A stretch of DNA of 64,000 nucleotides from Bacteroidota bacterium (GTDB taxonomy: Bacteria; Bacteroidota; Bacteroidia; Bacteroidales; CG2-30-32-10): NCBI GenBank assembly GCA_013377115.1, contig JACAAW010000001.1:17063-81062 (forward strand), written 5' to 3'. The notes beneath the pieces were generated by a model that was not told the origin of the DNA, did no database searches, and worked only from the letters and a program-made list of their open reading frames with translations. The position numbers and the translations under genes are program-made. Below are positions 36,296 through 54,373 of this stretch, piece after piece (the stretch's first letter is position 1; each line of letters starts with the position of its first letter).

Positions 36296-37042
36296 TTATT
36301 TCGTATTTAACAAAACACAACCATATGCCGCCAAAAACTGTGACTTTTCAGGACTTTCTGTGTTTTTAAACTTATCTTTAAACAATTTCAATATCATTGG
36401 ATGGTTATCAGGAATTCCACCAGTTACGACCAAAAAGTCTTCAACCAATGCCAATTCGAAACTTCTTTCAATGATTGAATTATAAATTCCCAAAACGATA
36501 CTTGGCATATTGGATCCATTTTTTATCATCCCAATAATTTCCGAAACAGCGAAAACAGTGCAAAAACTATTAATTCGAATTTCTTCAGTTGCTTTCTCGG
36601 CAAATTCATTGAATTCTAATGCTGAAATATCTAAGCGAAAAGCTATTTCTTCCAAAAATGAACCAGTACCAGCAGCACATTTTCGATTCATTTTAAATTT
36701 ATCAACTTGACCTTCTGCGTTAATTTTCACAAACTTTGTATCCTGACCGCCAATATCAATTACGGAACATGGCTTTTTGTAAATATCAAAAACAGCTTTG
36801 GACAATGCAATTATCTCAGAATTGGAAACCAAAGGAACCGTAAGCTTTTCGCGGCCATAGCCACAGGTAAAAATTGGATATTCGATTTCATGCTGGGCAG
36901 AAAAATGGTCAATTACTTTTTTTGAAGCTTTATCAAAGTCAAAACCAGTGCGGCCAACAAAATAATCGACAATAGCGTTATCTTCGTTAACGAGAACACC
37001 TTTGGTAAATGAAGATCCTAAATCAATTCCTATTCGGTACAT
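36296..37042 (-). CDS. BcrAD/BadFG/HgdC-family ATPase (electron-transfer activator)
   Basis: 248 aa. Actin-fold phosphate-1 motif IGIDLGSSFTKG, IDIGGQDTK, and cluster-bridging Cys contexts NRKCAAGTGSFLE and NSFCTVFAVSE. Confidence 0.85.
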   Translation of the reverse strand: MYRIGIDLGSSFTKGVLVNEDNAIVDYFVGRTGFDFDKASKKVIDHFSAQHEIEYPIFTCGYGREKLTVPLVSNSEIIALSKAVFDIYKKPCSVIDIGGQDTKFVKINAEGQVDKFKMNRKCAAGTGSFLEEIAFRLDISALEFNEFAEKATEEIRINSFCTVFAVSEIIGMIKNGSNMPSIVLGIYNSIIERSFELALVEDFLVVTGGIPDNHPMILKLFKDKFKNTESPEKSQFLAAYGCVLLNTK

Positions 37043-37092
37043 TATATATTTTTTACATTTAGATTTAAAAATAATGTAAATCTAAGAGAAAA

Positions 37093-38328
37093 TTATTTTC
37101 TATTTGCCAATTGTTGAATAAACGTTTCTATTGAAATAATGCTTTGCTCTTCGCTGTAGCACCTTGAATCATTCAAATCGCCATGAATTTCAATAAAAGG
37201 AACCTTGGTTTTTTCTAATAATCTATTTTGCAAACCGTATCTGTTGTTCGAGTTACGTGGACAAGTTTTGGATTCATGATAAATAATTCCGTCAATCGAA
37301 AATTCTGATAGAAGATTTGTCAAAACTTTTTCCTTTTCCTCGTCGGCTCTTACAATAAATAATTTGCAATAGGCCAATGCCGAAGATTCAAAAGGATCTG
37401 CTGGGTCTAAGGCATCAAAAATCCAGCTATTGCAATAGGTTGAAGCGACAATACAAGTGTCGAGACTTGCAAACATCTTAGCATTGCTGCTTAATTTGTA
37501 CCACAATGGCATTCCGTCCCAGTAAAGTCTTAGTTTTTCGTTTGGAACTGCACTAATTCCGTTCCTCACTCTTTCTTGAAGTTCTGCAAGTAAAATTTTA
37601 TAATAATCAACAGCATGCTGAGTTCCACGCATCACAACGATTGGTCCCATGTGAATCGCTGAATCAAAAAAGTTGATTGGTGATGGCTTATTTTTCGCTG
37701 TTTCTAAAACTTGACGCCAAAGCACGCAACCATCATGAGATAATTTTATCGTTTCTCTGAATTTGTCAATGTCGAATTTTTGCGTTGCAACCTTTTCCAA
37801 TTCAGGAATAATTTCTTTGAATTGTTCTGCAACAGATTTTATGATGCTTGGCGTGAGCTCGTTTATACAAAGTGGTGTATTGATCTCTAAAATAGGAACT
37901 TTAAAATACCTGGCGTAATATGAAAACCAATCTCCAACCTCGCGGCATTGATTGGTATTATAAACCAAAATATCTGGTGTTGGCACCGATTTGAATCCAC
38001 TTTTTTGAAGCGGTGTTTCGTTTTGCAAAAATGCACCAATATCGCTTGTTAAATACGAACAAATATCTGGTGAAAAACCATGAGCAACAGCTGTAGGAAT
38101 ATATTTATCAGCAGTTTTTGAAGCTCCCAACATGGCACCATGATTTTCAGGAAAATAAACTTCAAATCCCATGGAATAAAGCAATTCTGCCGGACCAACA
38201 CTTGTGCACCAGACAATTTTTTTATTCTTGGTTTCGTCAGCGGTTTTTAGTCGGTTAAAATAATCATCCATAGTAACACGGAGATTACCAACAGATTGAA
38301 GTTTTACTATTTCAGGTTTTTCTTGCAT
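37093..38328 (-). CDS. single-subunit member of the benzoyl-CoA reductase / 2-hydroxyacyl-CoA dehydratase family (double-cubane-cluster-protein-like)
   Basis: 411 aa. Family N-terminal signature IVWCTSVGPAELLYSMGFEVYFPENHGA and multiple conserved-looking Cys. Only one such subunit lies next to one activator gene. Confidence 0.7.
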   Translation of the reverse strand: MQEKPEIVKLQSVGNLRVTMDDYFNRLKTADETKNKKIVWCTSVGPAELLYSMGFEVYFPENHGAMLGASKTADKYIPTAVAHGFSPDICSYLTSDIGAFLQNETPLQKSGFKSVPTPDILVYNTNQCREVGDWFSYYARYFKVPILEINTPLCINELTPSIIKSVAEQFKEIIPELEKVATQKFDIDKFRETIKLSHDGCVLWRQVLETAKNKPSPINFFDSAIHMGPIVVMRGTQHAVDYYKILLAELQERVRNGISAVPNEKLRLYWDGMPLWYKLSSNAKMFASLDTCIVASTYCNSWIFDALDPADPFESSALAYCKLFIVRADEEKEKVLTNLLSEFSIDGIIYHESKTCPRNSNNRYGLQNRLLEKTKVPFIEIHGDLNDSRCYSEEQSIISIETFIQQLANRK

Positions 38329-38330
38329 CG

Positions 38331-39104
38331 TTATTTATTTTTCCAAACTGGTTTTCTTTTTTCTAAGAATGAATTAATCCCTTCGTTTGCATCTTCGGTT
38401 TCCATCAACTCTTTTACAAACATATCAGTAAAAGCAGGCAGATTTTTATTCATGAAATAATCGAAAGAAGCACGGGCAGCGCGAGTTGCATATTTTAATG
38501 ATACTGCACTTTTGGTACAAATATTACTTGTAATCCATTTTTCAGTTTCTGCTTCCAACATTTCTTTGTCTTCAAATACCTCATTGAGCAAACCAAGGTT
38601 TTTTGCTTCATCAGCAGAAATAATTTTCCCTGTAATTAAAAGTTCCTCAGCTTTTGCATTTCCAATTTTCAATGGCAACATAATTGAGGCTGGCGGAGCA
38701 AAAACGCCAAGAACAATTTCTGGTTGACCTAATTTTGCTGATTTATCTGCAAACATAAAATTACAAACCAATGCTAATTCGAGACCTCCACCCAAACACT
38801 GACCAGAAATTTTAGACATGGTTGGAATATGAAGTTCAACTATTGTTTGGAATATTTTATGAAAAGTAGTGAGCATTTTTAATGCATTTTCTTTGGTATG
38901 TTCTTCAACACTGGCTCCAAATGAAAAATGTTTTCCTGCTCCCTCAAAAGTAATGAGTTTTAAATCGTTTCTGGTTTTGTACGAAACTAAAAGTTCAATC
39001 AGTTCATTCATCATGATATCATCAATAACATTGCCCTTACCGTCATCGAGAACAATTCTTGCGACGGTGTTTTCGTATAAATATTCTACTTTTATTTTTT
39101 GCAT
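38331..39104 (-). CDS. dch: enoyl-CoA hydratase-fold protein; candidate cyclohexa-1,5-diene-1-carbonyl-CoA hydratase
   Basis: 257 aa crotonase (GAGKHFSFGASVEEH, CLGGGLELALVC) in the same operon as the had and oah homologues. Substrate is inferred from context only. Confidence 0.55.
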   Translation of the reverse strand: MQKIKVEYLYENTVARIVLDDGKGNVIDDIMMNELIELLVSYKTRNDLKLITFEGAGKHFSFGASVEEHTKENALKMLTTFHKIFQTIVELHIPTMSKISGQCLGGGLELALVCNFMFADKSAKLGQPEIVLGVFAPPASIMLPLKIGNAKAEELLITGKIISADEAKNLGLLNEVFEDKEMLEAETEKWITSNICTKSAVSLKYATRAARASFDYFMNKNLPAFTDMFVKELMETEDANEGINSFLEKRKPVWKNK

Positions 39105-39110
39105 TGTATT

Positions 39111-39140
39111 AAAATGTTTGTTGTTCTTTGTTTTATGTTT
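39111..39140. repeat. left inverted repeat flanking the four-helix-bundle gene
   Basis: aaaatgtttgttgttctttgttttatgttt. Its reverse complement matches 39599-39634 (a 15-nt exact block aacataaaacaaaga plus a 7-nt block caaacat). Confidence 0.75.
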
Positions 39141-39549
39141 ATTGTTCTATATTGGTCGTTTTATGAAACTTTGTACCTTTATACTGAGAATTTTTCAGAT
39201 AAGTAATTAACCCTCCAGATTTTGAAATTATTTCTTCACAAATTTGAGAATTGATTTTAAATTCCTCTTCCGAAATATATTTCCAATCAATGGCTCTGTA
39301 TAATTGTGATCGACATTCATTGCATGAACCAAGTGCTATACTCAAAAAATTAACAAATTCTTTGTTTCCCCCTCTTCCATAGCCTTCAGCAATATTATCC
39401 ATAATTGAACCACTTGAAGATTTTATTTGGTCTCTAAATCTGAAATCTTTTTGAAAAGAACCCTTTTCTGTTATCTCAAAAATATTAACACACAATTTTC
39501 TTGCAAGTTGCCATATTTCTAAATCTTCAAATCTTTTAAAAGTCGCCAT
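39139..39549 (-). CDS. four-helix-bundle protein (23S rRNA intervening-sequence protein family)
   Basis: 136 aa. FEDLEIWQLARKL.., RFRDQIKSSSGSIMDNIAEGYGR, ALGSCNECRSQL are typical of the PF05635-type family. Confidence 0.8.
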   Translation of the reverse strand: MATFKRFEDLEIWQLARKLCVNIFEITEKGSFQKDFRFRDQIKSSSGSIMDNIAEGYGRGGNKEFVNFLSIALGSCNECRSQLYRAIDWKYISEEEFKINSQICEEIISKSGGLITYLKNSQYKGTKFHKTTNIEQ

Positions 39550-39598
39550 TTCAAATTGATAAGTTCAATGTTGATTATCAGTAATTTAATATGGTTTT

Positions 39599-39634
39599 AA
39601 CATAAAACAAAGATCCTCAAACATAAAACATTTT
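39599..39634. repeat. right inverted repeat flanking the four-helix-bundle gene
   Basis: aacataaaacaaagatcctcaaacataaaacatttt, partner of 39111-39140. Confidence 0.75.
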
Positions 39635-39639
39635 TTAGT

Positions 39640-40722
39640 TTATTGAAATTGTGGCGAAATCGTTTTTATCAATTCATCATTCCACTCATGACCTTCAGCA
39701 AGCATTTGGCGTAATTTTACAAAATCAGCTTCTCTATTGTCTTTTGGACCATCATTGAATGCTCTGAAACCAGCTTTTCCTTCTGTCATCATGTTTAAAG
39801 CTAACCAATCTCTGTGGCTTTCTTTGTTCATATCCCAGAAAGCAAGTTTATGCATTCTAAGAGCATTAATGGTTTTGCTTAAACAATTTGGCATTGTATA
39901 AAGTAATTTTGTACAACATTTTTCAACGGCTTCGTCTAATGCTGTCAAATCAACAACACCAGATTTCATGATTTCTTTTCCTTTTGCTAAATCATCACCA
40001 GATTTTGATCTGCCATAAACAATTTGACCTCTATCGTCAACCCATTTATCAACAACAACCATTGGGTTTGCTATATATTCGCCATTAACTTTTAAAGCAG
40101 GAACTACTTCAGTTAGTAAACCTAAACGTAAAGCTTCATGAGCCGACCATGGATCGCAAACTGTGCAAGAATACATTGCATTTTCAATACCAACTAAAAG
40201 AGGTAAGAAATCTGTTGAACCACCAATTGGTGCACTTCCATGTTTAGGACCAGCTTGACCAAAACGGGCTAAATCCTGAGAAATAGAGAAATCGCAAGCC
40301 ATTCCAATTTCTTGTCCACCACCAATTCTCATTCCATTAACTCTGCAGATAACAGGTTTGTCATTCATTAAAATTGAAGAAACCATGTCATTAAACAAAC
40401 GCATGTATTGTTTGTATTCTTGAGGATTTCCAGCATAATATTCTGCGTATTCTTTAGTGTTTCCACCTGTACAGAATGCTTTATCTCCAACTCCAGTGAA
40501 AACAACAGCAACCACGCTTCTATCATTAGAAGATTCGCGCATTGCAAGAATTACTTCTTTAACTGCATCAGTTGTGTAAGAATTGTATTGACTTGGATTG
40601 TTTAGAATAATCCAGGCATTGAATAAACCTTTTATTGCATTTCCATGTTTATCTTTACAAGGGCGCAATTCATAAATAATGTTTTGGTATTCGTGCTTTA
40701 CTAAATTGTGACTTGATAACAT
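39640..40722 (-). CDS. oah: 6-oxocyclohex-1-ene-1-carbonyl-CoA hydrolase (ring-cleaving; Oah/BamA)
   Basis: 360 aa, an enlarged crotonase. It contains QYNSYTT and GGGQEIGMACDF about 90 aa apart. These are the peptides encoded by the bamA marker primers SP9/ASP1 as I recall them. Confidence 0.85.
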   Translation of the reverse strand: MLSSHNLVKHEYQNIIYELRPCKDKHGNAIKGLFNAWIILNNPSQYNSYTTDAVKEVILAMRESSNDRSVVAVVFTGVGDKAFCTGGNTKEYAEYYAGNPQEYKQYMRLFNDMVSSILMNDKPVICRVNGMRIGGGQEIGMACDFSISQDLARFGQAGPKHGSAPIGGSTDFLPLLVGIENAMYSCTVCDPWSAHEALRLGLLTEVVPALKVNGEYIANPMVVVDKWVDDRGQIVYGRSKSGDDLAKGKEIMKSGVVDLTALDEAVEKCCTKLLYTMPNCLSKTINALRMHKLAFWDMNKESHRDWLALNMMTEGKAGFRAFNDGPKDNREADFVKLRQMLAEGHEWNDELIKTISPQFQ

Positions 40723-40748
40723 AATTCTATATTTTTTAATTATTAATA

Positions 40749-41810
40749 TTATTGATTGTCGGGGACCAAAATAGACCTTTTTTTGTATTTATGTTCCAAT
40801 GTATTTTTGAATACTTCATTGATTTTCGACATTGGGAAAAGTTCAACAAAATCATTGATTTTCAATTTATCTGTCGCAATTAAATCAATTACTTCTGTAT
40901 ATAATTCAGGTTTGCAACCCCAGGTGCCAATTACTTTTGCATCGAAAGCCATTAAATTACTCAAGCGAACTTCTGGTTTATCCATGGTAAATCCAACAAT
41001 TGATAAAGTTGAAGTAAAGGTAATCAAATTGAATCCCAATTCTTGTCCGGCTTTTGTACCAGACATTTCGAAAATTTTCCAACCAAAGCGAGAAACGCCC
41101 AAGATTTTAACAATCTCTTTTACATTTTCTTTCACGGTTCTAATATCCATACCTTTAATATTGAGAGTGGCATCAATTCCGTTTGCTTTTGCGGTTGCTA
41201 ATTTTTCATTATCAATATCCAAAGCCAAAACTTTGGCACCCATAATTTTTGCGATTAATGCAGCATAAACGCCAACACCGCCAACACCAATAACAATTGC
41301 TAAATCGCCTACCTCCAATTCAGATTTTTTCAATACTTGATAAGGAGTTGAAATTGCATCAGCAACAACAGCTAATTTTTCCAAAGGGTATTTTTCTAAA
41401 ACGGCTTCAGGAACTGGACATAAAAATTTCGCAGGAACTTTGATATGAGAAGCAAAACCTCCATCAAAATCATTTCCTGGCATTAGTTGTTTTTGGCACA
41501 TATTGCTGCGTCCCTTTTTACAAAGTTCACATTCGCCACAAGGAAGAACAGCAGGAATAATCACATTTTTTCCAATCCACTCACTTGGTCCAGCTATGAC
41601 TTTTCCACTAATTTCATGACCAAGAGTTAAAGGCAATTCTTTTTTTGTTTTTACACCAAAATGCCAAAAGCTCAAATCTGTATGGCAAACGCCACAACCA
41701 GAAATTTTTATTAAAGCTTCATCTTGATTGAGTTCTGGTAAAGGACTTTCTACAAGTTGAAAATCAGCTTTTAGCTCCGTCATTTTCCAAGAATACATTT
41801 TTCCTTCCAT
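40749..41810 (-). CDS. had: Zn-dependent alcohol dehydrogenase; candidate 6-hydroxycyclohex-1-ene-1-carbonyl-CoA dehydrogenase
   Basis: 353 aa. Catalytic Zn ligands (GCGVCHTD, GHEISG), structural Zn site CGECELCKKGRSNMC, Rossmann motif GVGGVGV. Immediately upstream of oah. Confidence 0.7.
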   Translation of the reverse strand: MEGKMYSWKMTELKADFQLVESPLPELNQDEALIKISGCGVCHTDLSFWHFGVKTKKELPLTLGHEISGKVIAGPSEWIGKNVIIPAVLPCGECELCKKGRSNMCQKQLMPGNDFDGGFASHIKVPAKFLCPVPEAVLEKYPLEKLAVVADAISTPYQVLKKSELEVGDLAIVIGVGGVGVYAALIAKIMGAKVLALDIDNEKLATAKANGIDATLNIKGMDIRTVKENVKEIVKILGVSRFGWKIFEMSGTKAGQELGFNLITFTSTLSIVGFTMDKPEVRLSNLMAFDAKVIGTWGCKPELYTEVIDLIATDKLKINDFVELFPMSKINEVFKNTLEHKYKKRSILVPDNQ

Positions 41811-41830
41811 ATGATAATGTTATTTGTTTT

Positions 41831-42799
41831 TTAAATATTTTCTCCGTCTTTGGATGTTCTATTTTTGTAGGTTATTGACCTTACTAAATTTGTAAACGTT
41901 AAATTTAATGGTGTTTTAATGTAATGTTTACGACCATATTCAACAATTTTTCCATTCATAAAATCAATTTCTGTCTCTTTTTTGTTAATTAAATCGACTG
42001 CTAATGAAGGCATGTGATTTCCGGCATTTTTCAAATAACGAATGCACAATTTAACAAAATTCTCAGGTAATTTTATTTCCTCTGCTTTTGCAACTTCAAC
42101 AGCTTCATAAATAATTTGTTCTACAATTTCTAAAGTATCTGGATGATCCATTGCTTCTTTCATGGTAAGATTGGAAATCGCACATAATGGACTTAAAGCC
42201 GCATTTAAAATTGTTTTTTCCCAAATTTTGTTAACGACTTCAAAAGAGCCAACTTTTTCGGTAATTAAACCAACGCTTGTTAATAATTCGGCTATTTTTT
42301 CAGCTATTTCAGGATGAGAATCATCAACAGAGGCAACATAGTTTGGTGGATTGAAAAAACTAACTGCTGTAACATTAGGAGCATGAAGATTTCCAGCATA
42401 GTTGACAACCATTCTCAACACTTTTGATTCTTCAAAATGTGTAATGTATTTTTTTCTAACTCCAATTCCATTTTGGGCAATCAATAAAAAAACATCTTTT
42501 TTATCACAAAGTTTTACTTGTTCGATAATACTATCAACATTATAATCTTTTACAGCGCTAATTAAAACATCAAAATCATGTTCCAGCAATTCTTGAATTG
42601 AGCTATAAACATGTTTAAAATAAGCTTGCTTTTCAATTTTATCAACCAATTCAATTCCTGAATTTCTAATTAAAGCAAGTTTGTTTTTATCAATGTCAGT
42701 AATAGCAACTTCACATCCAGCTTCTTTTAAATGAACTGCTAATGCTTGCCCAACAGGACCAAGACCAATAATTCCGAATCGAAATACTTTTTCTCCCAT
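41831..42799 (-). CDS. ketopantoate-reductase (ApbA/PanE) family NAD(P)-dependent oxidoreductase
   Basis: 322 aa. N-terminal GIIGLGPVG Rossmann fold and C-terminal PanE-type helical domain (KIWEKTILNAALSPL.., SLAVDL..KETEIDFMNG). Confidence 0.7.
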   Translation of the reverse strand: MGEKVFRFGIIGLGPVGQALAVHLKEAGCEVAITDIDKNKLALIRNSGIELVDKIEKQAYFKHVYSSIQELLEHDFDVLISAVKDYNVDSIIEQVKLCDKKDVFLLIAQNGIGVRKKYITHFEESKVLRMVVNYAGNLHAPNVTAVSFFNPPNYVASVDDSHPEIAEKIAELLTSVGLITEKVGSFEVVNKIWEKTILNAALSPLCAISNLTMKEAMDHPDTLEIVEQIIYEAVEVAKAEEIKLPENFVKLCIRYLKNAGNHMPSLAVDLINKKETEIDFMNGKIVEYGRKHYIKTPLNLTFTNLVRSITYKNRTSKDGENI

Positions 42800-42841
42800 A
42801 ATTTTATTCTTCTTTCTATAAAATAAAAATCCTTTAATAAA

Positions 42842-44929
42842 TTACATAATAATACGAGCATCTACTGCACAAACCCTATTCTCATTTGCAAAAATGGGGT
42901 TTAAATCCAACTCTTTGATTTCTGGAAAATCATTCACCAAAGTGGAAATTCTTTGTAAAATCTCTGATACTTTTCCTTTATCAATTCCTTTTTTCCCTCT
43001 AAAATCATTCAATAATGCGGCCGATTTAATATTTTCGAGCATTTCATTTGCCTCAACATCAGTGGTTGGAGCAATTTTGAACACCACATCTTTGTATACC
43101 TCAACCATAACACCACCCATTCCGAACATAATTAAATGGCCTAATCCTTCTTCCTCCTTAACTCCGATAATTAATTCTCGGCTTTCAGGAAGAAATTCCT
43201 GAATGAAGAATTTTAAATCTGGTTGCTGAAGTTTGTTTTGCATATTTTGCACTACAGTTCTGACTTCCTCAGCGTTTTTAATATTTATTGCAACTCCACC
43301 CACATCACTTTTGTGAATGATTTTTTCCGAATCCGCTTTTATTACCAAAGGAAATCCAATTTTCTCGGCTTCAATAACAGCTTCATCAACAGTTTTTGCA
43401 ATACTCCATTTTGCTATTGGAATTTTGTAAGCCTCTAAAATTTCATAAACATCTTTGGCTGTTAAAACTTCTTTTCCTTGGGCTTTTACTGAATCGAAAA
43501 CGGCTTTAGCTTTGCCTTTATTGATATCTGTAAAAGTTTTTATTGAACCTTTTTTCCTCGATCTGATTTCATTGTATTTTGAAAGTGACGAAAGGGCTTT
43601 TGCAGCAGTTTCAGGGTAATCAAAACATGGAATTCCTCCATCAGCAAGAATTTTAGAAGTTTCACCCCAGTTTTGTTTATCCGTGATATAATTACAAACA
43701 ATTGGTTTTATTTGTTTTTTGCTTATTTCAGCAATTTCTTTAGCGACACTCACACAATCAACAAAAGGAGGAGTTACAAAAGTGAGATAAATCCCGTCAA
43801 TTTGCTCTTCATTCATCATCACTTCTATGGCGCTTTTAAAATGTGCAGCACCAGCAGTCGCCACAACATCCAAAGGATTGTTTATTGACGCTTGTTCCAA
43901 CATGGTTAGTTTTAATTCTGCTTTGGCTTTTTCCGAAATTGGAGGCATTGCCATACCACAAGAAACCAGTTCGTCGGTTGCAATAATAGCAGGACCACCA
44001 GTATTGGTAATCATTCCAACGTTGCTTCCATTTGGTATTGGTTGCGAAGAAAAAGCAATGGCAGCATGACAAATTTCCTCTAAATTAGAGAATGAAAGAA
44101 TTCCTGCTTTTTGAAATATCAGCTCCATTGTTACTCCACCAGCCAAACCACCAGTATGGGATTTGGAAGCCGCAGCACCTTTTTCGGTTCTACCAGCAGA
44201 AATGGCTAAAATTGGTTTTTTAGCAGCAACTTCCATCGCTACTTCCATGAATTCTTTTGTATTTGAAAGGCTTTCGAGATAAAGAATAATTACTTTGGTT
44301 CCTTCATCTTCGCCATAATATTTTAAAATTTCGGATATGGAAACATCAGAGCCATTGCCATTAGAAGAATAAAGCCTCAATCCAATTTCCATATCATGCA
44401 ATACTTGCATAATTAATGCCCCAACACCGCCACTTTGCGCAACAATAGAAATAGAACCTGGTTTGTAAAATGTAAATGTAAAATTGCAATAAGCATTGTA
44501 TTTTGGGTCGGAATTGATGGTACCTTGGCAGTTTGGACCAATAATTCTGATACCGTATTTTTTTGCGCGGGCTAAAAAATCATCTTCAAGAGCCTGACCT
44601 TCTGCCCCCATTTCTTTGAAACCAGCAGTATTGATAATAATAGCTTTTACTCCTTTTTTTCCGCAATTTTCAACCTCTTCTGGAACAAACGGTGGAGGTA
44701 TAACGATGTGAGCTAATTCGACTTCGCCAGGAACATCCATAATTGATGGATAAGCTTTTATTCCCCGAATCTCGTCAACCTTTGGGTTTATTGGATAAAT
44801 TGGCCCTGTAAAACCATAATGAACTAAGTTTTTGATGATGATATTTCCAATAGAAAGCTCTTTTACTGATGCACCAATTAACGCAATTGATTTGGGTTCG
44901 TAGAAATAATTCAAGTTATCTTTATTCAT
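42842..44929 (-). CDS. ADP-forming acyl-CoA synthetase (fused alpha-beta), first gene of the ring-processing operon
   Basis: 695 aa. CoA-binding N-domain (IALIGAS), phosphohistidine loop SKSHTGGLAG, C-terminal ATP-grasp domain. Paralogue of the gene at 13714-15771. Confidence 0.8.
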   Translation of the reverse strand: MNKDNLNYFYEPKSIALIGASVKELSIGNIIIKNLVHYGFTGPIYPINPKVDEIRGIKAYPSIMDVPGEVELAHIVIPPPFVPEEVENCGKKGVKAIIINTAGFKEMGAEGQALEDDFLARAKKYGIRIIGPNCQGTINSDPKYNAYCNFTFTFYKPGSISIVAQSGGVGALIMQVLHDMEIGLRLYSSNGNGSDVSISEILKYYGEDEGTKVIILYLESLSNTKEFMEVAMEVAAKKPILAISAGRTEKGAAASKSHTGGLAGGVTMELIFQKAGILSFSNLEEICHAAIAFSSQPIPNGSNVGMITNTGGPAIIATDELVSCGMAMPPISEKAKAELKLTMLEQASINNPLDVVATAGAAHFKSAIEVMMNEEQIDGIYLTFVTPPFVDCVSVAKEIAEISKKQIKPIVCNYITDKQNWGETSKILADGGIPCFDYPETAAKALSSLSKYNEIRSRKKGSIKTFTDINKGKAKAVFDSVKAQGKEVLTAKDVYEILEAYKIPIAKWSIAKTVDEAVIEAEKIGFPLVIKADSEKIIHKSDVGGVAINIKNAEEVRTVVQNMQNKLQQPDLKFFIQEFLPESRELIIGVKEEEGLGHLIMFGMGGVMVEVYKDVVFKIAPTTDVEANEMLENIKSAALLNDFRGKKGIDKGKVSEILQRISTLVNDFPEIKELDLNPIFANENRVCAVDARIIM

Positions 44930-45034
44930 AAACTATAAAAATTCAGGTGAAAAGCAGGATGTTAGATTTGAAGTTTTTAGGAGAATCAAAATACTTAACG
45001 AGTCCAAATTTAAATCTTTCTTAAAGTTATTTTA

Positions 45035-45213
45035 TTAAAATCAAATATAGTAATCTTTATTGATTATGTCAAATTTTAAAAAAACCATAACAAATAAGGA
45101 TTCTTTATATCGCAAAGATAAAAATAAATCGACAAAAAACAAATATGGTTTGAAAAAACAAACGAATTCGCCTTTTTTCCTATTGCTTTAGTAGGAAATT
45201 AACTATTTTTAAC
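45035..45213 (-). promoter_or_regulatory. promoter/regulatory region, copy X of a duplicated ~180-bp block
   Basis: On the minus strand: TTTG (45070-45073), N20, TATATTTG (45042-45049), matching the Bacteroidota -33/-7 consensus, about 113 nt upstream of the ATG at 44929. A 43-nt block identical to copy Y lies further upstream (tctttatatcgcaaagataaaaataaatcgacaaaaaacaaat), as does the palindrome TTCCTA-N9-TAGGAA (45177-45197). Confidence 0.7.
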
Positions 45214-45444
45214 ATTTTATTAATATTTAACGCAAATCAAAATAAAAACGTTAGATATTTAATCCTTTAATTCAAAACGAAATATTTTATCTTTCGAGGT
45301 AATTCCTCTTCACAAATACACTGATTTCATTAATGAAATAACGGCAAGTACTTTCTAAATTATTATCAAATAATTCCGGTGGTATTGATTATTTTTAGGC
45401 GGTTGAAAAAGTGGTATTTTGAGAAATATTGATACAAATTCTAC

Positions 45445-46272
45445 CTATTTTTTCAACTTCTTATTTTTCTTCGCTTCGGGTAAAAAATTGTTTTCAGAAA
45501 TTACTTTTTCACCTGTTTTTAATTCCAATGCTTTTCTAGCATCACCTGCTATTTTACCGCCTTGTTTGGCAACCACTTTATTTTGGACAAAACCTTTTGG
45601 GTTTTTAGTTTTTACAATAGCTGTTGTTGATGCTTCTCCGAGCATTGAGAAAATTAATTCCAAATCGGTCATGTGGTCACGCAGGTTTTGGCTTTTCAAA
45701 CCTTTTACTTTCTTGTATTGAGAAGGTGTTAAACCAAATGTTGCTTTAGAAATTTCTGCAGTTAAAATAGAATATTCAATTTGTTCTTTTACGCCTCTAT
45801 TTTTCCATTCCTCAGTTAATTCTTCACGAATAGCAATGCTACGCATTCGTTTTTCAATCCAATCGTCAGGATAGCCTTTGGCTTTATACAATTCTCTGGT
45901 TCGTTGAGTTGCTAATTCCGGATTTTCAATTTCGTCTAATCTGTCTGAACCAACTTGTGCCAACCATTGCTTAAATGGTTCTGCTTTGGGTGATGGAATT
46001 GATTGAATGATTCTCAAAAGACCTTTAGCGTTTGCAGCCTGTACTTTACGTCTTTTACCATCAGCTGCCTGCATTTCAACTAGGGTACAAATTGTACCCC
46101 AGTTGCTTTTTAGTTGTTCATCACGACTTAAAATTCTTTTTATGTATTGCTTAACATCCGCACTATCGGTGAGGACTTCTACAACATCTTGCACTGAGAA
46201 ATACCATTTGTTCTCTGTTTCGTTCCAAACAGACCGTATTTGCTTACTTTCAAAAAGTTTTATATTGCTCAT
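45445..46272 (-). CDS. Bro-N domain / DinD-like (DNA-damage-inducible protein D family) protein
   Basis: About 275 aa from the ATG at 46272 (MSNIKLFESKQIRSVWNETENKWYFSVQDVVEVLT is Bro-N-like). The C-terminal region ..NLRDHMTDLELIFSMLGEASTT.. resembles DinD. Confidence 0.65.
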   Translation of the reverse strand: MSNIKLFESKQIRSVWNETENKWYFSVQDVVEVLTDSADVKQYIKRILSRDEQLKSNWGTICTLVEMQAADGKRRKVQAANAKGLLRIIQSIPSPKAEPFKQWLAQVGSDRLDEIENPELATQRTRELYKAKGYPDDWIEKRMRSIAIREELTEEWKNRGVKEQIEYSILTAEISKATFGLTPSQYKKVKGLKSQNLRDHMTDLELIFSMLGEASTTAIVKTKNPKGFVQNKVVAKQGGKIAGDARKALELKTGEKVISENNFLPEAKKNKKLKK

Positions 46273-46544
46273 TAATTTGTTTTTTCTGGAACTCAAAAAT
46301 ACTTAAAAGTGCGTACTTTAAAAAATGATTTTGAAAATTTGGAGGGTTGAGTTATCAACAATTATTTATTACAGTAGACAATTTACAACAAATATTCTAA
46401 GGAAAATCTATCAGGAAATACAAAAATTATTCCGCAATCACCCAATCACCATTTTTGATGAGAATATTGTTAGGATTGAAATCCCAGTTCATGTTACTTA
46501 ATAATTAAGAAAATTCTAAATAATTACAATTTCAATAATTGGTA

Positions 46545-47369
46545 TTATTTTTTATTCAATTTATGGTATCTAAATCCACCAAATATTGCAGCTCCAATTG
46601 CTCCAGAATAAATTGCATCGGGATGTGTCGAAAAAGTTAAACCTAATTTTGCTTCTGTTCCAAGTTCTTCAATTGCCTGAACCATACCTTTATTCATTGC
46701 CATTCCACCCATTAATGCAACTTTTGAATCGGCTTTTAATGAAGAAAGCAATTTTATTACTTTACTTGCTATGGATAAATGAATTCCTTTAATAATATCT
46801 GGAGTTGAAATCCCTCTAGAAACCATGTTAATCACATCCGTTTCTGCAAGTACTGAGCAAATACCTGAAGGCAATTCAGGTGACATTGATTTTAGTGATG
46901 CATCGCCAACTTCTTCTATTGCTAATCCTAAATATCTTGAAATGTTTTCAACAAATTGTCCCGAACCAGAAGCACATTGGCCTGTCATTTTATAATCCAA
47001 TACTCGGCCTTCATCACTAATGTTTATTGCTCTTACGAAAAGAGCTCCAAGATCCAAAACTGTTTTTGAACCAGGATTAAGAAATAGCCCACCTTTTGCA
47101 TGAGTAGTCATGCTATAAAAATGACCTTTCTTTCTTTTTAGAAGTTCTCCTTCTCCAGTTGAAGCCACATAAGCAATATCCTCGTATTTCAAATTGTTTT
47201 TTAAAAGTATTGCATCTAATAAAAGATCCGAAATACTTTCGGGATTCCTTTTTCTTATTTTCTCGTTTACCTTGTCAATAATAATTGGATTATCAGAATA
47301 CTCCATTAAAACCAGTTTAATTGTACTGCTTCCAACGTCAATTCCGAGGGTATAAACTTTATTATCCAT
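46545..47369 (-). CDS. bcrD: benzoyl-CoA reductase ATPase subunit, small (BcrD/BadG-like)
   Basis: 274 aa. LGIDVGSSTIK, cluster Cys contexts TGQCASGSGQF and SGICSVLAETD. Fourth gene of a C-B-A-D series. Confidence 0.75.
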   Translation of the reverse strand: MDNKVYTLGIDVGSSTIKLVLMEYSDNPIIIDKVNEKIRKRNPESISDLLLDAILLKNNLKYEDIAYVASTGEGELLKRKKGHFYSMTTHAKGGLFLNPGSKTVLDLGALFVRAINISDEGRVLDYKMTGQCASGSGQFVENISRYLGLAIEEVGDASLKSMSPELPSGICSVLAETDVINMVSRGISTPDIIKGIHLSIASKVIKLLSSLKADSKVALMGGMAMNKGMVQAIEELGTEAKLGLTFSTHPDAIYSGAIGAAIFGGFRYHKLNKK

Positions 47370-47401
47370 ATAGACTTATTTCTTTATTTAATTTTTACTG
47401 A

Positions 47402-48784
47402 TTATTCAACATGACTTCTTCTAGCAAACATTGCTCCGCCCAGAGCTCCCATAAATATTGAGTCAGGATGAATATTAATAATAATATCATCACCATAATT
47501 TTTATGTACCAACTCAGAAACGTATTTCAATACTGCTTGGTTACGAGCAACACCACCTGTAAATGTAAATTCATTTCTAACACCACCTGAACGAGCTAAT
47601 AAAGACATCGCTCTCATCACAATTGCGCGATGTAAACCGGCTAAAATATCAGAACGTTTTTGACCTACATTTAAAAGCTCACGAATTTCTGCAGCAGCAA
47701 AAACAGTACACGTTGAACAAATATTAACTTCACTTTTTGCCTCCAAAGCTAATGGTCCAAGTTCATTTAATGAAATACTAAACTCATCAGCAATGTAACC
47801 AAGATATCTTCCACATCCAGCAGCACATCTATCATTCATATGGAAACTAGTTACCAAACCATGACTATCAACCTGAATCGCTTTTGTATCCTGCCCACCA
47901 ATGTCTAAAACTGTTTTTGTATTAGGGAAAACAGCATGAGCTCCAAAAGCATGGCATAAAATCTCAGATTTGATACATTTCTCTGGGAATGGCAATAATG
48001 CTCTTCCATATCCTGTTCCTACCATATTGGCTATGTGAATATCCATATTGGCAACAAACATGATGTGTTCCTTTATTGAATCATGAACATTTTTAAAGTT
48101 GCCCTTCAATAAATTCATTTCAGTATCAAATTCTATACTTTGGTTTTCAGCAATAGTCTCTTCAAGATTCTGATATTTATCGTGAAGAATTTCTAATGCC
48201 TGAAACACCAACTCTTTGAAATTAAACTCCGTGAGCTCATTTTCTACGGATGTGATACTTTTATCATAAACCAGCATCAAAGGTTCAAATAGTGCTTTAT
48301 CTAATTTCCCAATTTCTTTGTTAAAATGCTCACTTACAATATCACGAAAAAATTGATTTTTAGAACCTAAATTTCCATACAAAAAATCATCATGAATAAT
48401 TGGTCCAATAGTTTTTACAATATTCTCAACATGCTTTGCAACAATATCTCTCAATTCGTTTTCGAAGGTAGTTGCAATGGTATCTTTGAATTGAACATTT
48501 AGGCGATCCAATCGTTTTTTAAACTGTAAATATTGAAATACGGATTCAACATCCTCGATATATTTTTTATATTCTGGTTTGCTCTGAATCTCATCTTCCA
48601 ATTTTAATTTGAGCAAAGAAAATCTAGCATTATAAATGGCCTCAAGTCTGGCAATTTCAGTTGCCACCGTATAATTTGCCCTTGTATTTGTAATTCCTCT
48701 TCCAATTATCTCATCTTTTTCATTAACAATTACTGCTTTAGATGTTGTTGAGCCGAGGTCTATTCCTAAAAAGTATTTCTTCAT
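47402..48784 (-). CDS. bcrA: benzoyl-CoA reductase ATPase subunit, large (BcrA/BadF-like)
   Basis: 460 aa. LGIDLGSTTSKA, then a ~200-aa insertion, then DIGGQDTKA, NDRCAAGCGRYL and CSTCTVFAAAE. The insertion-bearing large ATPase is characteristic of class I BCR alpha subunits. Confidence 0.75.
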   Translation of the reverse strand: MKKYFLGIDLGSTTSKAVIVNEKDEIIGRGITNTRANYTVATEIARLEAIYNARFSLLKLKLEDEIQSKPEYKKYIEDVESVFQYLQFKKRLDRLNVQFKDTIATTFENELRDIVAKHVENIVKTIGPIIHDDFLYGNLGSKNQFFRDIVSEHFNKEIGKLDKALFEPLMLVYDKSITSVENELTEFNFKELVFQALEILHDKYQNLEETIAENQSIEFDTEMNLLKGNFKNVHDSIKEHIMFVANMDIHIANMVGTGYGRALLPFPEKCIKSEILCHAFGAHAVFPNTKTVLDIGGQDTKAIQVDSHGLVTSFHMNDRCAAGCGRYLGYIADEFSISLNELGPLALEAKSEVNICSTCTVFAAAEIRELLNVGQKRSDILAGLHRAIVMRAMSLLARSGGVRNEFTFTGGVARNQAVLKYVSELVHKNYGDDIIINIHPDSIFMGALGGAMFARRSHVE

Positions 48785-48817
48785 TGATATCTGTTATTTC
48801 TAAATTTTGTAAAATTT

Positions 48818-50089
48818 TTAATACATCTTTCTTTGATCTAACATTTGGAAAAAAGACTCAAGTCTGTTTTTAATGTTGGAATAAGAAAAATATCTCGGAT
48901 CTACTAAATCAGATTCAATAAATCCGACAGGAATTTCCAGTTGTCGTTCTAATTGTTGCATAATCATTAATTGTCCGGCAGAAAAAGAATTACAACTTTT
49001 TATTGAATTCACTAAAAATCCATCGGCTTTATAATCTGTAATACATTTTGACAAAAGCTCCACTCTTTGTTCTAAATTTAGGTTGGTATAGCAATTCATA
49101 CAATATTCTGCAAGGCTTTCGAGTGGTTTCTCAGGATTAACTCTAAATCCCATATCATAAACACCGCCAACTTTGGTATAGGAAGAAGCAACGATGACGG
49201 CTCCCATATCATAGAATAATTTCCAAAATTCTCTGAAATGAGTCCAATTTGGAGGACCTTCAACTACCAATCTAAATCGTTCTTTTTCCATTACACCTTC
49301 AGGGGTGATTGGGCCCAAACCAAGATTAACTCTTTCTAAAATTTCATTATAAAGTTCATGATAATAATTTACTGCTTCATCAGAACCACGAAAACCATTA
49401 TTAATTGGCCCGATATAGTAAACGCCAGCAAAATAGGCATCAATAGGAGATGGAACATTTTTGGTGGTATCAAAAATCTTCATAATATAATCTTCCACCT
49501 TGCTAGAATTTCGTAAGCAGGCCTTTAATTTTTCTTCATCATATTTATTTCCAGAAACTTTTTCCATTTTAGGAATAACCTCTTCCTTCAATTGCTTCAC
49601 CATATAAGCAGTCATTTCTGGAGTAACTTTATGATTTTCTTGATAAGGTGTGTGCAATAAGGCAACAGGAACATCTGGATAAAGACGTTTTAATGTTTCG
49701 AACCATTTCATGAAAGTGAAACAGCCAGTATAACTTAAAAGAAAAAGATCGGGTTCAGGAATTTTTTCACCATTTGGACCAATGTTTCCATTAATCATCA
49801 TTCCAACATCACATTTAACATAGGTACAAACATCTTCAGAATGCCCTATTTTTTCTGCATCCCTAATAAAATCGGCAGATTTTTTTCTCATTCCAGATTG
49901 CAATGCATTTATTTCTGGATAAACAGGCAACATGCCGAATGACAATATTAATTCTGAAATATTCCCCGGAACAAAAGTATAAACAACTTTTTTTCCAGTT
50001 TCTTTTGCAGTACTCAAATCCTTAAAAAGACGAGAAATCATCTCTTTTTGAATAATCATACTTTTTTCTTTTGCAATATCTTTTGACAT
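48818..50089 (-). CDS. bcrB: benzoyl-CoA reductase core subunit (BcrB/BadE-like; 2-hydroxyacyl-CoA dehydratase fold)
   Basis: 423 aa. Family signature VVYTFVPGNISELILSFGMLPVYPE. Its size fits the ~48-kDa BCR beta subunit. Confidence 0.7.
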   Translation of the reverse strand: MSKDIAKEKSMIIQKEMISRLFKDLSTAKETGKKVVYTFVPGNISELILSFGMLPVYPEINALQSGMRKKSADFIRDAEKIGHSEDVCTYVKCDVGMMINGNIGPNGEKIPEPDLFLLSYTGCFTFMKWFETLKRLYPDVPVALLHTPYQENHKVTPEMTAYMVKQLKEEVIPKMEKVSGNKYDEEKLKACLRNSSKVEDYIMKIFDTTKNVPSPIDAYFAGVYYIGPINNGFRGSDEAVNYYHELYNEILERVNLGLGPITPEGVMEKERFRLVVEGPPNWTHFREFWKLFYDMGAVIVASSYTKVGGVYDMGFRVNPEKPLESLAEYCMNCYTNLNLEQRVELLSKCITDYKADGFLVNSIKSCNSFSAGQLMIMQQLERQLEIPVGFIESDLVDPRYFSYSNIKNRLESFFQMLDQRKMY

Positions 50090-50166
50090 ATTTTAAGTAA
50101 AATTAATAGTTAAAAAAACGAGTATTTTTGCAGTATAAATTCAAATATGAAATCTACTAAAATACA

Positions 50167-51330
50167 CTAATCCCAAAGTTTAATAGAATCTGAAAAAGTT
50201 CCAACCTGTTCTTTAATAACTTTAAACTGTCCTGTATTTTCACTATACAAGAAGCTTATGTAACGCATATTGTTTTCAATGCAGGCTTGTTGAAGAATTG
50301 GATGGTCTAATAATGCTGGGTCACAAAAACTAGGAGCAGCAAAAATAATTCCATCAACTTTTCTTTCGCTGGCAAGTTTTAATAATCGAGCTTCTTTCGG
50401 ATTATCAACGTCGTAAACTGATGAAGAGAAGGTGCTATTATTTAAATATGAGTGACTTAATGCTCTAAAAGGATCATTGCTGTCAGTTGGAATATCTCCT
50501 TGAATCCATCTGGTTCCTAAAAGGAAATCATCTTCAACAATATAACAACCTGCCAATTCAATAGCTCTAATTAATCCAACTGGAGGTTGCTCACAAAATG
50601 CTCCAATTACTAAAACTCTGATTTTATCTAGTGGCTCTCCACTTTCTTGATTAAGCAAACTAATTACTTTTTCAAGAATTTCATTATGCTCTTCAACTGG
50701 AATTACCAATCCTGCCCTTACAATATGGTAAACATCAGCAGCTGTTATTTTCCAAGGAGCAGCATCGCGAATGGAATAAATCTCTTCAGTTAATTTTCTA
50801 TTTTTATTGAACAAAGAAATAGAGTGATTAAGGCGTTCAGGTGTAATTTCAACATTGTTGATTTTTTTTACTTCTGCCAATACGTGTTCCATTTCTTGAA
50901 TATAGAAGGTTCCCCCAATATGAGATTTGAAATTTTGCGGATAATCCAGATATTTTACAAACTTACCTTTGTTTAAGAGTTTAAACATTCCAGATAAATT
51001 TCTGATAACATCACAAATAGAAGGAAAAATAAATCCATCAAAACCCTCAAAATGATTATCAAGAGCAAGCTCAATGATACCTCTGGGCATATGGCAAATA
51101 TAGGATTGATAATAAGCATCACCCTTTACTATTAGTTTTTTATCTCCACCACCCATTATACCAATGGCTAAACCATTTGCAGCATGTATAATTTCTCTAG
51201 GAAAATAAATTGGCATATAACCTACCAGAACCCTTGACTGATCCTGCGATTTCCACTCTTTTGCTCTAGTAAAATTTAAATCAAAGGAAAGATCTTCACA
51301 TTTACTAATAATTTCATTTAAAGATTCCAA
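50167..51330 (-). CDS. bcrC: benzoyl-CoA reductase core subunit (BcrC/BadD-like)
   Basis: 387 aa. VGYMPIYFPREIIHAANG signature. The ORF begins with TTG at 51330, and the next Met lies inside the conserved region, so a TTG start is likely. Confidence 0.7.
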   Translation of the reverse strand: MESLNEIISKCEDLSFDLNFTRAKEWKSQDQSRVLVGYMPIYFPREIIHAANGLAIGIMGGGDKKLIVKGDAYYQSYICHMPRGIIELALDNHFEGFDGFIFPSICDVIRNLSGMFKLLNKGKFVKYLDYPQNFKSHIGGTFYIQEMEHVLAEVKKINNVEITPERLNHSISLFNKNRKLTEEIYSIRDAAPWKITAADVYHIVRAGLVIPVEEHNEILEKVISLLNQESGEPLDKIRVLVIGAFCEQPPVGLIRAIELAGCYIVEDDFLLGTRWIQGDIPTDSNDPFRALSHSYLNNSTFSSSVYDVDNPKEARLLKLASERKVDGIIFAAPSFCDPALLDHPILQQACIENNMRYISFLYSENTGQFKVIKEQVGTFSDSIKLWD

Positions 51331-51357
51331 ATTGTAATTGTTTTTAATGAAGTTTTT

Positions 51358-51538
51358 TATAAAATCAAATATAGCAATCTAAATCAGTTATGTCAAATTT
51401 TAGAAATATTATAACAAATAACTAATCTTTATATCGCAAAGATAAAAATAAATCGACAAAAAACAAATCACAATTAAAAAAGGCGCCGTAAGTGCTGTTT
51501 TTCCTATCGCTTTAATAGGAAATTTAACTATTTTTAAC
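51358..51538 (-). promoter_or_regulatory. promoter/regulatory region, copy Y of the duplicated block (upstream of bcrC)
   Basis: On the minus strand: TTTG (51394-51397), N20, TATATTTG (51366-51373), 36 nt upstream of the TTG start. It carries the same 43-nt block as copy X and the palindrome TTCCTAT-N7-ATAGGAA (51501-51521). Confidence 0.7.
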
Positions 51539-51547
51539 TTTTCACTT

Positions 51548-52339
51548 TTAGAATTGAATTTTCGAAATAAATTCCATCATTTTTCTTTGCACCAATTCTT
51601 TGGCTTGAAAATGAGGTTCATGTCCACAATTCTCAATAAATAGAATTTCGATGGTTCCGCTTACGTTTTTTAGTTTTGAAATCAATTGCTCAACAGAACC
51701 GTAAGCATCGTCTTTTCCTTGAATAGAAAGGACAGGAGAGGTAATATTTTTTAAATGTTTTTCAACATTCCAAATTTTTCCACCTTCCGAAAGCCAAGTA
51801 TCGCACCAACCATGAAACATGGTTTCGGTTTTTTCTTGATGGTATTTATAAAGGACTCTTTTCAGAACACCTGATTCAAAATGTTTTAATGTGGCCCGGA
51901 AACCTTGATAGGTAATTTCTTCACAAAAAATATGATCTGCTTCAGTTATTACTCCTAAAACTTTTTCGCGATATTTTGATGCAAACAAAAGTGCAATGGT
52001 TCCTCCATCACTATGTCCAACTAAAATTACTTTTTCAGTGATATTCAAATTTTTCAATAAATCAGGTAAGGAATCAAACCCTTCAATATCCATATAATCG
52101 TTATCACGAAGTTCGTTCAGCATTTCCGATTTTCCGTATCCATAACGATCGTAAATCAGCATGGGCAATTCTGTTTTATCGCTTATTTCTTTAGGAAACC
52201 CTTTCCACTGGGCACAACTTCCTAAACCTTCATGAAGAAAAATCAATAACGGTTTTTCAGGCTTCCGAAATTGAAGATTGTGAAACTCGTAATAAATTTC
52301 CCTGCTATTTGCATTAATAAAACCACTGGTACTATTCAT
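51548..52339 (-). CDS. alpha/beta-fold hydrolase
   Basis: 263 aa. HEGLGS oxyanion region, nucleophile elbow GHSDGG, C-terminal catalytic His (CGHEPH). Confidence 0.8.
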   Translation of the reverse strand: MNSTSGFINANSREIYYEFHNLQFRKPEKPLLIFLHEGLGSCAQWKGFPKEISDKTELPMLIYDRYGYGKSEMLNELRDNDYMDIEGFDSLPDLLKNLNITEKVILVGHSDGGTIALLFASKYREKVLGVITEADHIFCEEITYQGFRATLKHFESGVLKRVLYKYHQEKTETMFHGWCDTWLSEGGKIWNVEKHLKNITSPVLSIQGKDDAYGSVEQLISKLKNVSGTIEILFIENCGHEPHFQAKELVQRKMMEFISKIQF

Positions 52340-53302: not shown

Positions 53303-53340
53303 AGCGAGACAACAAAAGTTTTAAAAACTTTTGTTATCTT
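53303..53340. repeat. REP-like imperfect palindrome H1
   Basis: agcgagacaacaaaagttttaaaaacttttgttatctt. Stem acaaaag/cttttgt extended by gaga/tatc. Located between the RAYT stop and the start of the preceding gene. Confidence 0.75.
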
Positions 53341-53343
53341 AAG

Positions 53344-53919
53344 CTAAGTCTGAAAATCAAGTTCAAAATTAGTATTTTCCATTAAATGAAATGCTTTAAA
53401 ATTATTTATATCCTCAAACATTTCAATAATTTCTTTTGAACCTAGCCATTCGCAATCATTTTTTGTAATAGCATTAAAAGAACTAAAATTGTAATCAGAG
53501 GCAACTGAACAAATTCCAGCTTCCACAGGGTTCAAGTGAATGTATCGAATAAGATTCTTAAGATAAATTTCGTCTTCTATTTGTTTACGTTTAAATTTAT
53601 ACTGAAATAAACTTCCAGTCCTATGATATTTTTTATTGATACTTTTAGCATATGAAATAAAAAAATCTCGAAAAGCTTTTTCAATTGGGGTTAAAGCTAG
53701 TTGTTTCGTTAAATTTTGATACTGCAATTTTTCATTTTCTTTTATTCTTATTAAAAAATGAAAATGATTATTCATCAAACAATATGAAAAGACATCAACA
53801 AATGGATCGAGGTATTGGCGAAATTTTTTCAGAAAATAATCATAATTCTCTTCCTCATAAAATATAATATCGCCATTGTTACCCCTATTAAATACGTGGT
53901 AATATCCGCCTTCAATCAT
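53344..53919 (-). CDS. REP-associated tyrosine transposase (RAYT; IS200/IS605 Y1 HUH family)
   Basis: 191 aa. HUH motif NNHFHFLI and catalytic-Tyr motif LIRYIHLNPVEAG. Confidence 0.85.
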   Translation of the reverse strand: MIEGGYYHVFNRGNNGDIIFYEEENYDYFLKKFRQYLDPFVDVFSYCLMNNHFHFLIRIKENEKLQYQNLTKQLALTPIEKAFRDFFISYAKSINKKYHRTGSLFQYKFKRKQIEDEIYLKNLIRYIHLNPVEAGICSVASDYNFSSFNAITKNDCEWLGSKEIIEMFEDINNFKAFHLMENTNFELDFQT

Positions 53920-54001: not shown

Positions 54002-54373
54002 TTATACTAGCATTCTATTTATAAAAAATTTAAAAAGGATCAGTGATGCAAAGGTTAAAATCAAAAATGACCAAGATAAAACTATTGATAAAAAATGACT
54101 TTTGAAAAACATCGGTTTCTCTTTAATTATTTTTTTTGCATACCCTTTTTTAACATAATAAAAATAATTAAAGACAAAGGGCAAAAGAATTATACCAAAT
54201 AAAATCCAATTATCTATTGTGTGCTTGAAAATTAACGAACTTAAGTAATCTGAAAATCCCATAACAAAAATCATTTCAGAAAAACTCAAAGAAAACCATG
54301 CGCTGAGTATTGGCTGGGTTTCCACCTTTGACCATTTATAGAATAAGTAATTATAGTAAAACAAAGTATTCAT
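54002..54373 (-). CDS. hypothetical small membrane protein
   Basis: 123 aa with 3-4 predicted TM helices. No recognisable motif. Confidence 0.4.
   Translation of the reverse strand: MNTLFYYNYLFYKWSKVETQPILSAWFSLSFSEMIFVMGFSDYLSSLIFKHTIDNWILFGIILLPFVFNYFYYVKKGYAKKIIKEKPMFFKSHFLSIVLSWSFLILTFASLILFKFFINRMLV

Follow-up and report, generated by a model that had tools for sequence, protein, structure and literature searches.

In Proteobacteria, the promoters of anaerobic benzoate degradation are known together with their regulators, namely bzd PN with BzdR in Azoarcus and the bad promoters with BadR, BadM and AadR in Rhodopseudomonas. To our knowledge, these regulatory regions are not duplicated within their clusters, and we know of no description of how the benzoyl-CoA reductase pathway is regulated in Bacteroidota. 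The cluster described here was found in 64,000 nt of a Bacteroidota metagenome-assembled genome; this whole stretch is called the window in the following. As in the proteobacterial bzd and bad systems, a regulatory region with candidate operator palindromes precedes the benzoyl-CoA reductase genes, but it has no sequence similarity to the proteobacterial regions, the sigma-factor consensus is a different one and no cognate regulator gene was found in the window.

A second kind of described system concerns mobile DNA in operons, where the downstream genes can be rescued by a new promoter, for example by the outward-reading promoters of insertion sequences (PMC9330008). Our locus resembles such cases in that a foreign gene sits within the operon and a (predicted) promoter directly behind it faces the genes that were cut off. 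It differs from them in that this promoter would be a diverged copy of the operon's own upstream region and not a part of the mobile element; therefore the original regulation, and not only expression, would be restored. A further difference to these insertion sequence cases is that the foreign unit, a DinD/Bro-N gene with its flanks, has neither a transposase nor terminal repeats.

A duplicated block in front of two gene sets

All genes of the region are encoded on the minus strand. One copy of the block (copy B) is followed by bcrC, bcrB, bcrA and bcrD (bcrCBAD, 46545-51330), the first of which, bcrC (50167-51330), scores 456 bits with the model TIGR02263, above the cutoff of 421. The first gene downstream of the other copy (copy A) encodes an ADP-forming acyl-CoA synthetase (42842-44929) and is followed by genes for an ApbA-like reductase, by had and oah, by a gene of the 23S-rRNA-IVP family, and by genes for a dch-like hydratase and an HGD-D/BcrAD pair. 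Since bcrC, bcrB, had and oah exceed the NCBIfam equivalog cutoffs, both halves can be assigned to one pathway; bcrA (416 vs 578), bcrD (306.5 vs 312.9) and dch (212 vs 292.5) stay below theirs. With the subunits BcrC, BcrB, BcrA and BcrD plus had and oah, the gene set is that of a Thauera-type class I benzoyl-CoA reductase operon. The original prediction had placed a regulatory block in front of both core operons, and the gene order around the two copies bears this out, as they precede the two halves of the benzoyl-CoA dearomatisation pathway.

That the two regions are paralogous had been claimed for 45035-45213 and 51358-51538. In MAFFT and pairwise alignments, the latter proposed earlier as a check, copies A (44995-45218) and B (51318-51543) are indeed colinear on the minus strand. 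A blastn search with the bcrD-synthetase spacer against the window aligned 44995-45217 with 51318-51542 over 227 columns (79.7% identity, E 4e-50), and in a repeat search the pair emerged as the largest direct repeat of the window (45030-45218 vs 51354-51542). While the paralogy thus stands, the extent given originally was too small: the block comprises ~225 nt and reaches 13 nt into the bcrC coding sequence. Copy B spans the whole intergenic region plus these 13 nt, and copy A is located at the downstream end of a 1.6-kb insertion (see below), 66-289 nt 5' of the synthetase ATG (44929).

Listed in the order of transcription (minus strand), the block consists of a 5' anchor, a palindrome, a central patch, the core, a stretch with the predicted promoter P2 and a leader/coding end, and these parts have diverged to very different degrees. 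Anchor and palindrome together are 89% identical between A and B. The patch (45145-45173 in A, 51469-51497 in B) has 29 nt in both copies and no indel, yet only 12 of the 29 positions match (41% identity), which agrees with the earlier statement that a central segment of ~30 nt is completely different. That the patch is unrelated in sequence yet equal in length suggests that spacing, not sequence, matters at this place; neither copy's patch resembles the corresponding segment of the two closest relatives (L002 and L003) significantly. The core, which harbours the predicted promoter P1, is identical at 43 of 43 positions (45102-45144 in A, 51426-51468 in B), as originally noted, and occurs exactly twice in the window, with a chance expectation of 0; a third copy was not found in the window even with up to three mismatches. 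In the following 66-nt stretch with P2, 80% of the positions are identical, and all substitutions fall outside both P2 boxes. The last ~44 nt, representing the 5' leader and the first bcrC codons in copy B, are 68% identical. A perfect run of 43 nt amid 228 columns of 79% identity has a probability of about 4e-4 according to mismatch permutation. Divergence as uneven as this suggests constraint or gene conversion: the two copies are evidently not of recent date, and the putative promoter elements were kept unchanged, be it by selection or by conversion.

Gene order in related loci and origin of the copies

Comparison loci were collected from GTDB representative genomes (80 loci, bcrC as query) and from metagenome contigs (80 loci, bcrD as query). 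The order bcrC-B-A-D-synthetase-apbA-had-oah-dch is conserved across metagenome-assembled genomes of Bacteroidota and Ignavibacteria. In L002 and L003, whose BcrC is 89% identical at the amino acid level, 2 nt separate the bcrD stop from the synthetase start, and in 61 of the 68 loci holding both genes the gap does not exceed 264 nt (median near 30 nt); the remaining seven have a different gene at this position. A Bro-N gene was found in none of the 68. In the window, 1,615 nt (44930-46544, minus strand) extend from the bcrD stop (46545) to the synthetase ATG (44929). We regard this stretch as a lineage-specific insertion because the two genes are nearly adjacent, and without Bro-N, in the relatives. 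Likewise, among the roughly 110 related loci whose upstream sequence was long enough, none repeats its bcrC upstream region. A search with bcrD in metagenome contigs for closer relatives that have the insertion yielded a best match of 76% amino acid identity and none with Bro-N. The idea that the promoter block was duplicated, possibly after insertion of a DinD-like gene had split a single operon, is therefore supported by synteny. At the ends of the block, of the insertion and of the DinD unit, no convincing inverted repeats or target duplications were detected.

The DinD/Bro-N unit occupies 45257-46333 (minus strand), with the gene at 45445-46272, or up to 46296 if a TTG start is used (protein NVO01119.1). 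The protein has more than 8,000 homologues, the best 120, with 85-93% identity, being spread over many Bacteroidota and at least one Limnohabitans. The homologues are always encoded by a solitary gene and lie in unrelated contexts, such as restriction-modification genes, a Y1 transposase, DUF1016 nucleases or a RES-Xre pair. In contigs of three other samples, identity to the window is 100% but limited to the stretch from 46333/46308 to 45257/45265, where these contigs end; that they stop at the same borders suggests a DinD unit of about 1.08 kb that is present in different contexts. For the copy in locus L087, nucleotide similarity to the window's DinD is confined to the coding sequence. No terminal repeats or transposase were found at the unit ends or within the unit. 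According to these comparisons, DinD/Bro-N is an unusually conserved and apparently mobile gene that lacks recognisable transposition machinery. Behind the gene there is no canonical intrinsic terminator, only a weak 5-bp hairpin with a T tract near 45270-45295, so that read-through from bcrD may feed the downstream genes.

As to the origin of the two copies, copy B starts 5 nt past the stop codon (51548-51550) of an alpha/beta-hydrolase gene and runs into an intact bcrC (TTG at 51330). Two anchors, AAAAATAGTTAA and ATTTGTTTTTT, are shared by A, B and the bcrC upstream regions of L002 and L003, with a spacing of 54 nt in A, 55 nt in B and 54 nt each in L002 and L003; the sequence between them is not significantly similar. 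Copy B represents the native site, and the two anchors with their conserved spacing of 54-55 nt indicate its orthology to the sequence preceding bcrC in L002 and L003. Copy A, for its part, runs on into TTGGAcTCgTTAAgT, the start sequence of bcrC. This relic of the TTG and the first four codons (44993-45007, minus strand), which the original prediction had not noted, reads TTGGACTCGTTAAGT compared to TTGGAATCTTTAAAT in bcrC, the latter being identical in the window, L002 and L003. Copy A hence derives from a bcrC upstream region. The similarity is confined to two sites, and the derived copy is absent from the relatives and carries flanking sequence of its source, as is the case in segmental duplications. 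At two short stretches, AATGTTAAAAATAGTTAA and AAAATAACTTTAA, copy A is slightly closer to L002 and L003 than copy B is; it may perhaps have descended from an older or foreign version of the bcrC upstream region.

Some further features of the bcrC start and its relic can be added here. The start codon of bcrC is TTG in the window and in nine of nine relatives inspected, and the first 31 nt of bcrC are identical in the window, L002 and L003, as compared with ~20% nucleotide divergence across the genes. The TTG of the relic opens a frame of 24 codons (44933-45007, minus strand) that ends with a TAG 3 nt before the synthetase ATG, which would in principle permit translation coupling. We did not consider this frame significant, its rough chance of staying open in A+T-rich DNA being about 0.13.

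Predicted promoters, palindrome and anchor

The sigma-A consensus of Bacteroidota, TTTG at -33 and TAnnTTTG at -7, was mapped in Bacteroides and Flavobacterium (PMC9723704). A promoter TTTG-N20-TATATTTG, here termed P2, had been proposed originally and is present on the minus strand of both copies, but this description was incomplete since a further promoter candidate within the core (P1) had been missed. P1 has the form TTTG-N19-TATCTTTG and is found at 45113-45143 in copy A (predicted transcription start near 45108) and at 51437-51467 in copy B (predicted start near 51432). P2 sits 71 nt downstream of P1. In copy A it reads TTTGACA-N17-TATATTTG (45042-45073), with a predicted start near 45037 and a leader of ~108 nt; in copy B (51366-51397), the predicted start is near 51361, leaving ~31 nt of leader to the TTG of bcrC. 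All four predicted starts lie about 5 nt past the -7 box, as expected for promoters of the Bacteroidota sigma-A type.

The -7 boxes of P1 and P2 conform exactly to TAnnTTTG in both copies, and the TTTG elements precede them by 19 nt (P1) and 20 nt (P2), the consensus spacing being about 19-21 nt. Exact matches to the composite motif TTTG-N18-21-TAnnTTTG amount to 10 on both strands of the window compared to 5 expected, and four of the ten fall into the two blocks; among the other six, four or five lie upstream of correctly oriented genes. Taken by itself, the TAnnTTTG box shows no enrichment in the window (116 vs 108 expected). P2 also fits the consensus TTGACA/TATATT, and it is the best TTGACA/TATAAT-type (sigma-70-like) match in the 7.6 kb scanned, with 11 of 12 positions in both copies. 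We infer that P1 and P2 of each copy are tandem sigma-A promoters of the Bacteroidota type. They share with the mapped promoters the exact -7 box, a TTTG 19-20 nt upstream and the orientation toward the first gene of a set, and differ from them in being known from sequence alone. The duplication of a tandem pair 71 nt apart as one unit is particular to this locus and not a trait of the promoter family.

The distal palindrome mentioned in the original prediction was recovered in both copies, with intact arms and the common form TTTCCTAY-N7-RTAGGAAA. It reads TTTCCTAC-TAAAGCA-ATAGGAAA in copy A (45176-45198) and TTTCCTAT-TAAAGCG-ATAGGAAA in copy B (51500-51522), and its centre is located ~80 nt upstream of the predicted P1 start in copy A. 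Searched for as a regulon-wide operator, the palindrome was found nowhere else in the window or in the 172 fetched loci. It is a candidate protein-binding site, be it for an activator or as an operator, but since it is confined to the two blocks and the window shows no evident regulator gene nearby, a role as an operator is conjecture. An intrinsic terminator was considered as well and rejected: the stem is A+T-rich, an A5 stretch follows on the minus strand, the terminator scan did not call it and the fold z-scores are weak.

Adjacent to the palindrome, the 5' anchor (minus strand) reads TGTTAAAAATAGTTAA in copy A (45199-45214) and AGTTAAAAATAGTTAA in copy B (51524-51539), with the shared form (T/A)GTTAAAAATAGTTAA. 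It recurs ahead of bcrC in L002 and L003, relatives with otherwise unalignable intergenic DNA. A mini-ORF starting at the anchor (ATG TTA AAA ATA GTT...) was discarded, as the reading frame is not conserved between A, B, L002 and L003. A k-mer enrichment analysis of the sequences upstream of bcrC in 109 relatives returned only A+T-rich words and was uninformative.

Explanations for the second copy

In our opinion, the block is likely to be the promoter region of the benzoyl-CoA reductase operon, duplicated such that like control was restored behind the DinD insertion. As the synteny shows, the ancestor had a single unit, bcrC-B-A-D-synthetase-apbA-had-oah-dch, which would have been driven from the bcrC upstream region. 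In the present lineage, 1,615 nt entered between bcrD and the synthetase gene, comprising the DinD/Bro-N unit and, at the downstream end, the ~225 nt of copy A. Each copy is predicted to supply two tandem sigma-A promoters and an upstream palindrome at a fixed distance, so that copy A would drive synthetase-had-oah-dch from the same promoters, and probably via the same regulator site, as copy B does for bcrCBAD. The pathway halves would thereby be co-regulated despite the foreign gene between them. This is a tidy but ordinary operon repair that introduces no new kind of system and will not surprise the specialist. It nevertheless provides a clean, datable case of an operon tolerating a selfish gene, in which the control region of the operon turns up again past the foreign gene; provided that the promoters are active, the regulation stays the same for both halves of the pathway. 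The elements identical between the copies (two -33/-7 pairs, the palindrome and the fixed spacing) mark the likely functional parts of the bcr promoter and are a useful pointer to the regulatory elements of bcr genes in Bacteroidota.

A more far-reaching proposal, which we put forward only tentatively, is that copies A and B serve as a paralogue footprint revealing a regulatory module, so far undescribed, by which Bacteroidota would control the anaerobic reduction of aromatic rings, i.e. candidate sites of a regulator that co-controls both pathway halves. Parts of this module would be TTTCCTAY-N7-RTAGGAAA and the anchor TGTTAAAAATAGTTAA, kept at a fixed distance of 54-55 nt from the -33 element of P1. 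If this holds true, a side effect of the 43-nt perfect direct repeats would be that the reductase module can be excised or amplified.

Alternatively, copy A could be a functionless by-product, carried along with or generated by the illegitimate recombination that inserted the DinD gene, with the synthetase gene set expressed by read-through from copy B or from a DinD promoter and the core representing a conversion tract. The lack of a convincing terminator between the DinD gene and copy A, the co-orientation of this gene with the operon and the useless bcrC start relic in copy A would all be accounted for, and the insertion of the IVP-family gene further down the same operon, behind which no promoter copy is found, demanded no new promoter either. 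Yet the four boxes and both palindrome arms of copy A are intact, whereas the spacers are substituted at ~20% of the positions and the relic is down to 68%. Intact boxes and arms beside drifted spacers and a decayed relic form the pattern expected of purifying selection on promoter and operator elements, and together with the 43-nt run (p about 4e-4) this fits selection on elements better than a single conversion tract, although for the identical core itself gene conversion could take the place of selection. On balance, we rate a functionless copy A as unlikely. That the copies act mainly as direct repeats, allowing loop-out or tandem amplification of the 6.3-kb segment with bcrCBAD and DinD, seems very improbable to us. 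A 43-nt perfect repeat within about 190 nt of 84% identity does bracket exactly this segment. Moreover, unitigs from an independent short-read assembly of SRR12042538 (Logan) fit the linear and the excised or deleted form alike: they cover 53697-51439 (L083), 51449-45115 (L082) and 45131-38599 (L001). On the other hand, no deletion or amplification junction was seen, 43 nt is close to the minimal length at which RecA-dependent recombination is efficient, and recombination would be a side effect of the duplication that gives no reason for conserved promoter boxes. The same unitigs speak to a possible assembly or chimerism artefact, a natural concern with a metagenome-assembled genome. They end inside the shared 43-mer (51439/51449 and 45115/45131) and are otherwise ~100% identical to the window, so that all three flanks are recovered independently and the repeat is not an assembly artefact; and because the copies differ at about 20% of the positions, they are no collapsed or duplicated read set either. 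We consider the chance of an artefact negligible.

The block might further be thought of as a dispersed mobile repeat of the MITE, REP or BIME type that happens to be present at both sites. It shares with such elements that it is short, non-coding and repeated, has an internal palindrome and resides in a genome with a RAYT-like gene, which is itself flanked by 33-nt palindromes in the vicinity. The dispersed copies that would mark a generic repeat, a scenario considered along with the original prediction, were not encountered in the window or in the collections searched, however. There are only two copies in 64 kb, both without terminal inverted repeats or target duplications, and exact 24- to 26-mers of the core gave 0 matches in GTDB representative genomes, JGI metagenome contigs and IMG/VR, collections that do not include the source genome. 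A blastn search of the block against the PLSDB plasmids gave no match; when the first 81 fetched loci were searched with both copies (word size 7) and all 172 with the whole insertion (word size 9), the block was matched only by unitigs of the same organism. In addition, its palindrome is unrelated to the REP-like one, copy A bears a coding remnant from the beginning of bcrC and the relatives' bcrC upstream regions are orthologues of copy B, all of which makes a mobile repeat highly improbable. An equally slim chance is given to a structured cis-regulatory RNA (leader or riboswitch) or a small RNA common to both operons, as might be suspected from long conserved non-coding DNA before two catabolic gene sets and a conserved hairpin. 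Rfam covariance models gave no match to the block at the gathering score and no relevant one at E values up to 1, and the left half of the block folds no better than shuffled sequences on either strand (z from -0.25 to -1.95). Also, the hairpin is upstream of both predicted promoters, and the leaders behind P2 are of unequal length (31 vs 108 nt) and show the lowest conservation within the block.

Apart from the duplication, the surroundings of the bcr genes have some features of their own. Between thiolase-like and FabK-like genes, ~2 kb upstream of the bcr genes, there is what looks like an inserted RAYT/REP-like unit. It contains two copies, 91% identical, of a near-perfect 33-nt palindrome (AGACwACAAAAGTTTTAAAAACTTTTGTwrTCT; 53307-53339 and 54465-54497) that flank the ORFs 53344-53919 and 54002-54373 (minus strand), one of which matches NF047646, the model for REP-associated tyrosine transposases, with an E value of 2e-16 but a score below the cutoff. 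The IVP-family gene (PF05635; 39139-39549, minus strand) has been inserted behind oah and ahead of the dch-like gene, two genes with a gap of 20 nt in L002 and L003; a homologue with 42% identity is found in an Ignavibacteria locus (L012, 7605-7940) at a different place of the same cluster. At the end of the operon, a second HGD-D/BcrAD pair (36296-38328, minus strand), consisting of a 2-hydroxyacyl-CoA-dehydratase-like subunit and an activase, is kept in the relatives beside a complete bcrCBAD. Finally, the order of the cluster is circularly permuted: the dch-like and HGD-D/BcrAD genes are located before bcrC in L012 (6750-20156), but after oah in the window (36296-51330) as well as in L002 and L003, which may be the trace of an earlier tandem duplication whose ends were lost.
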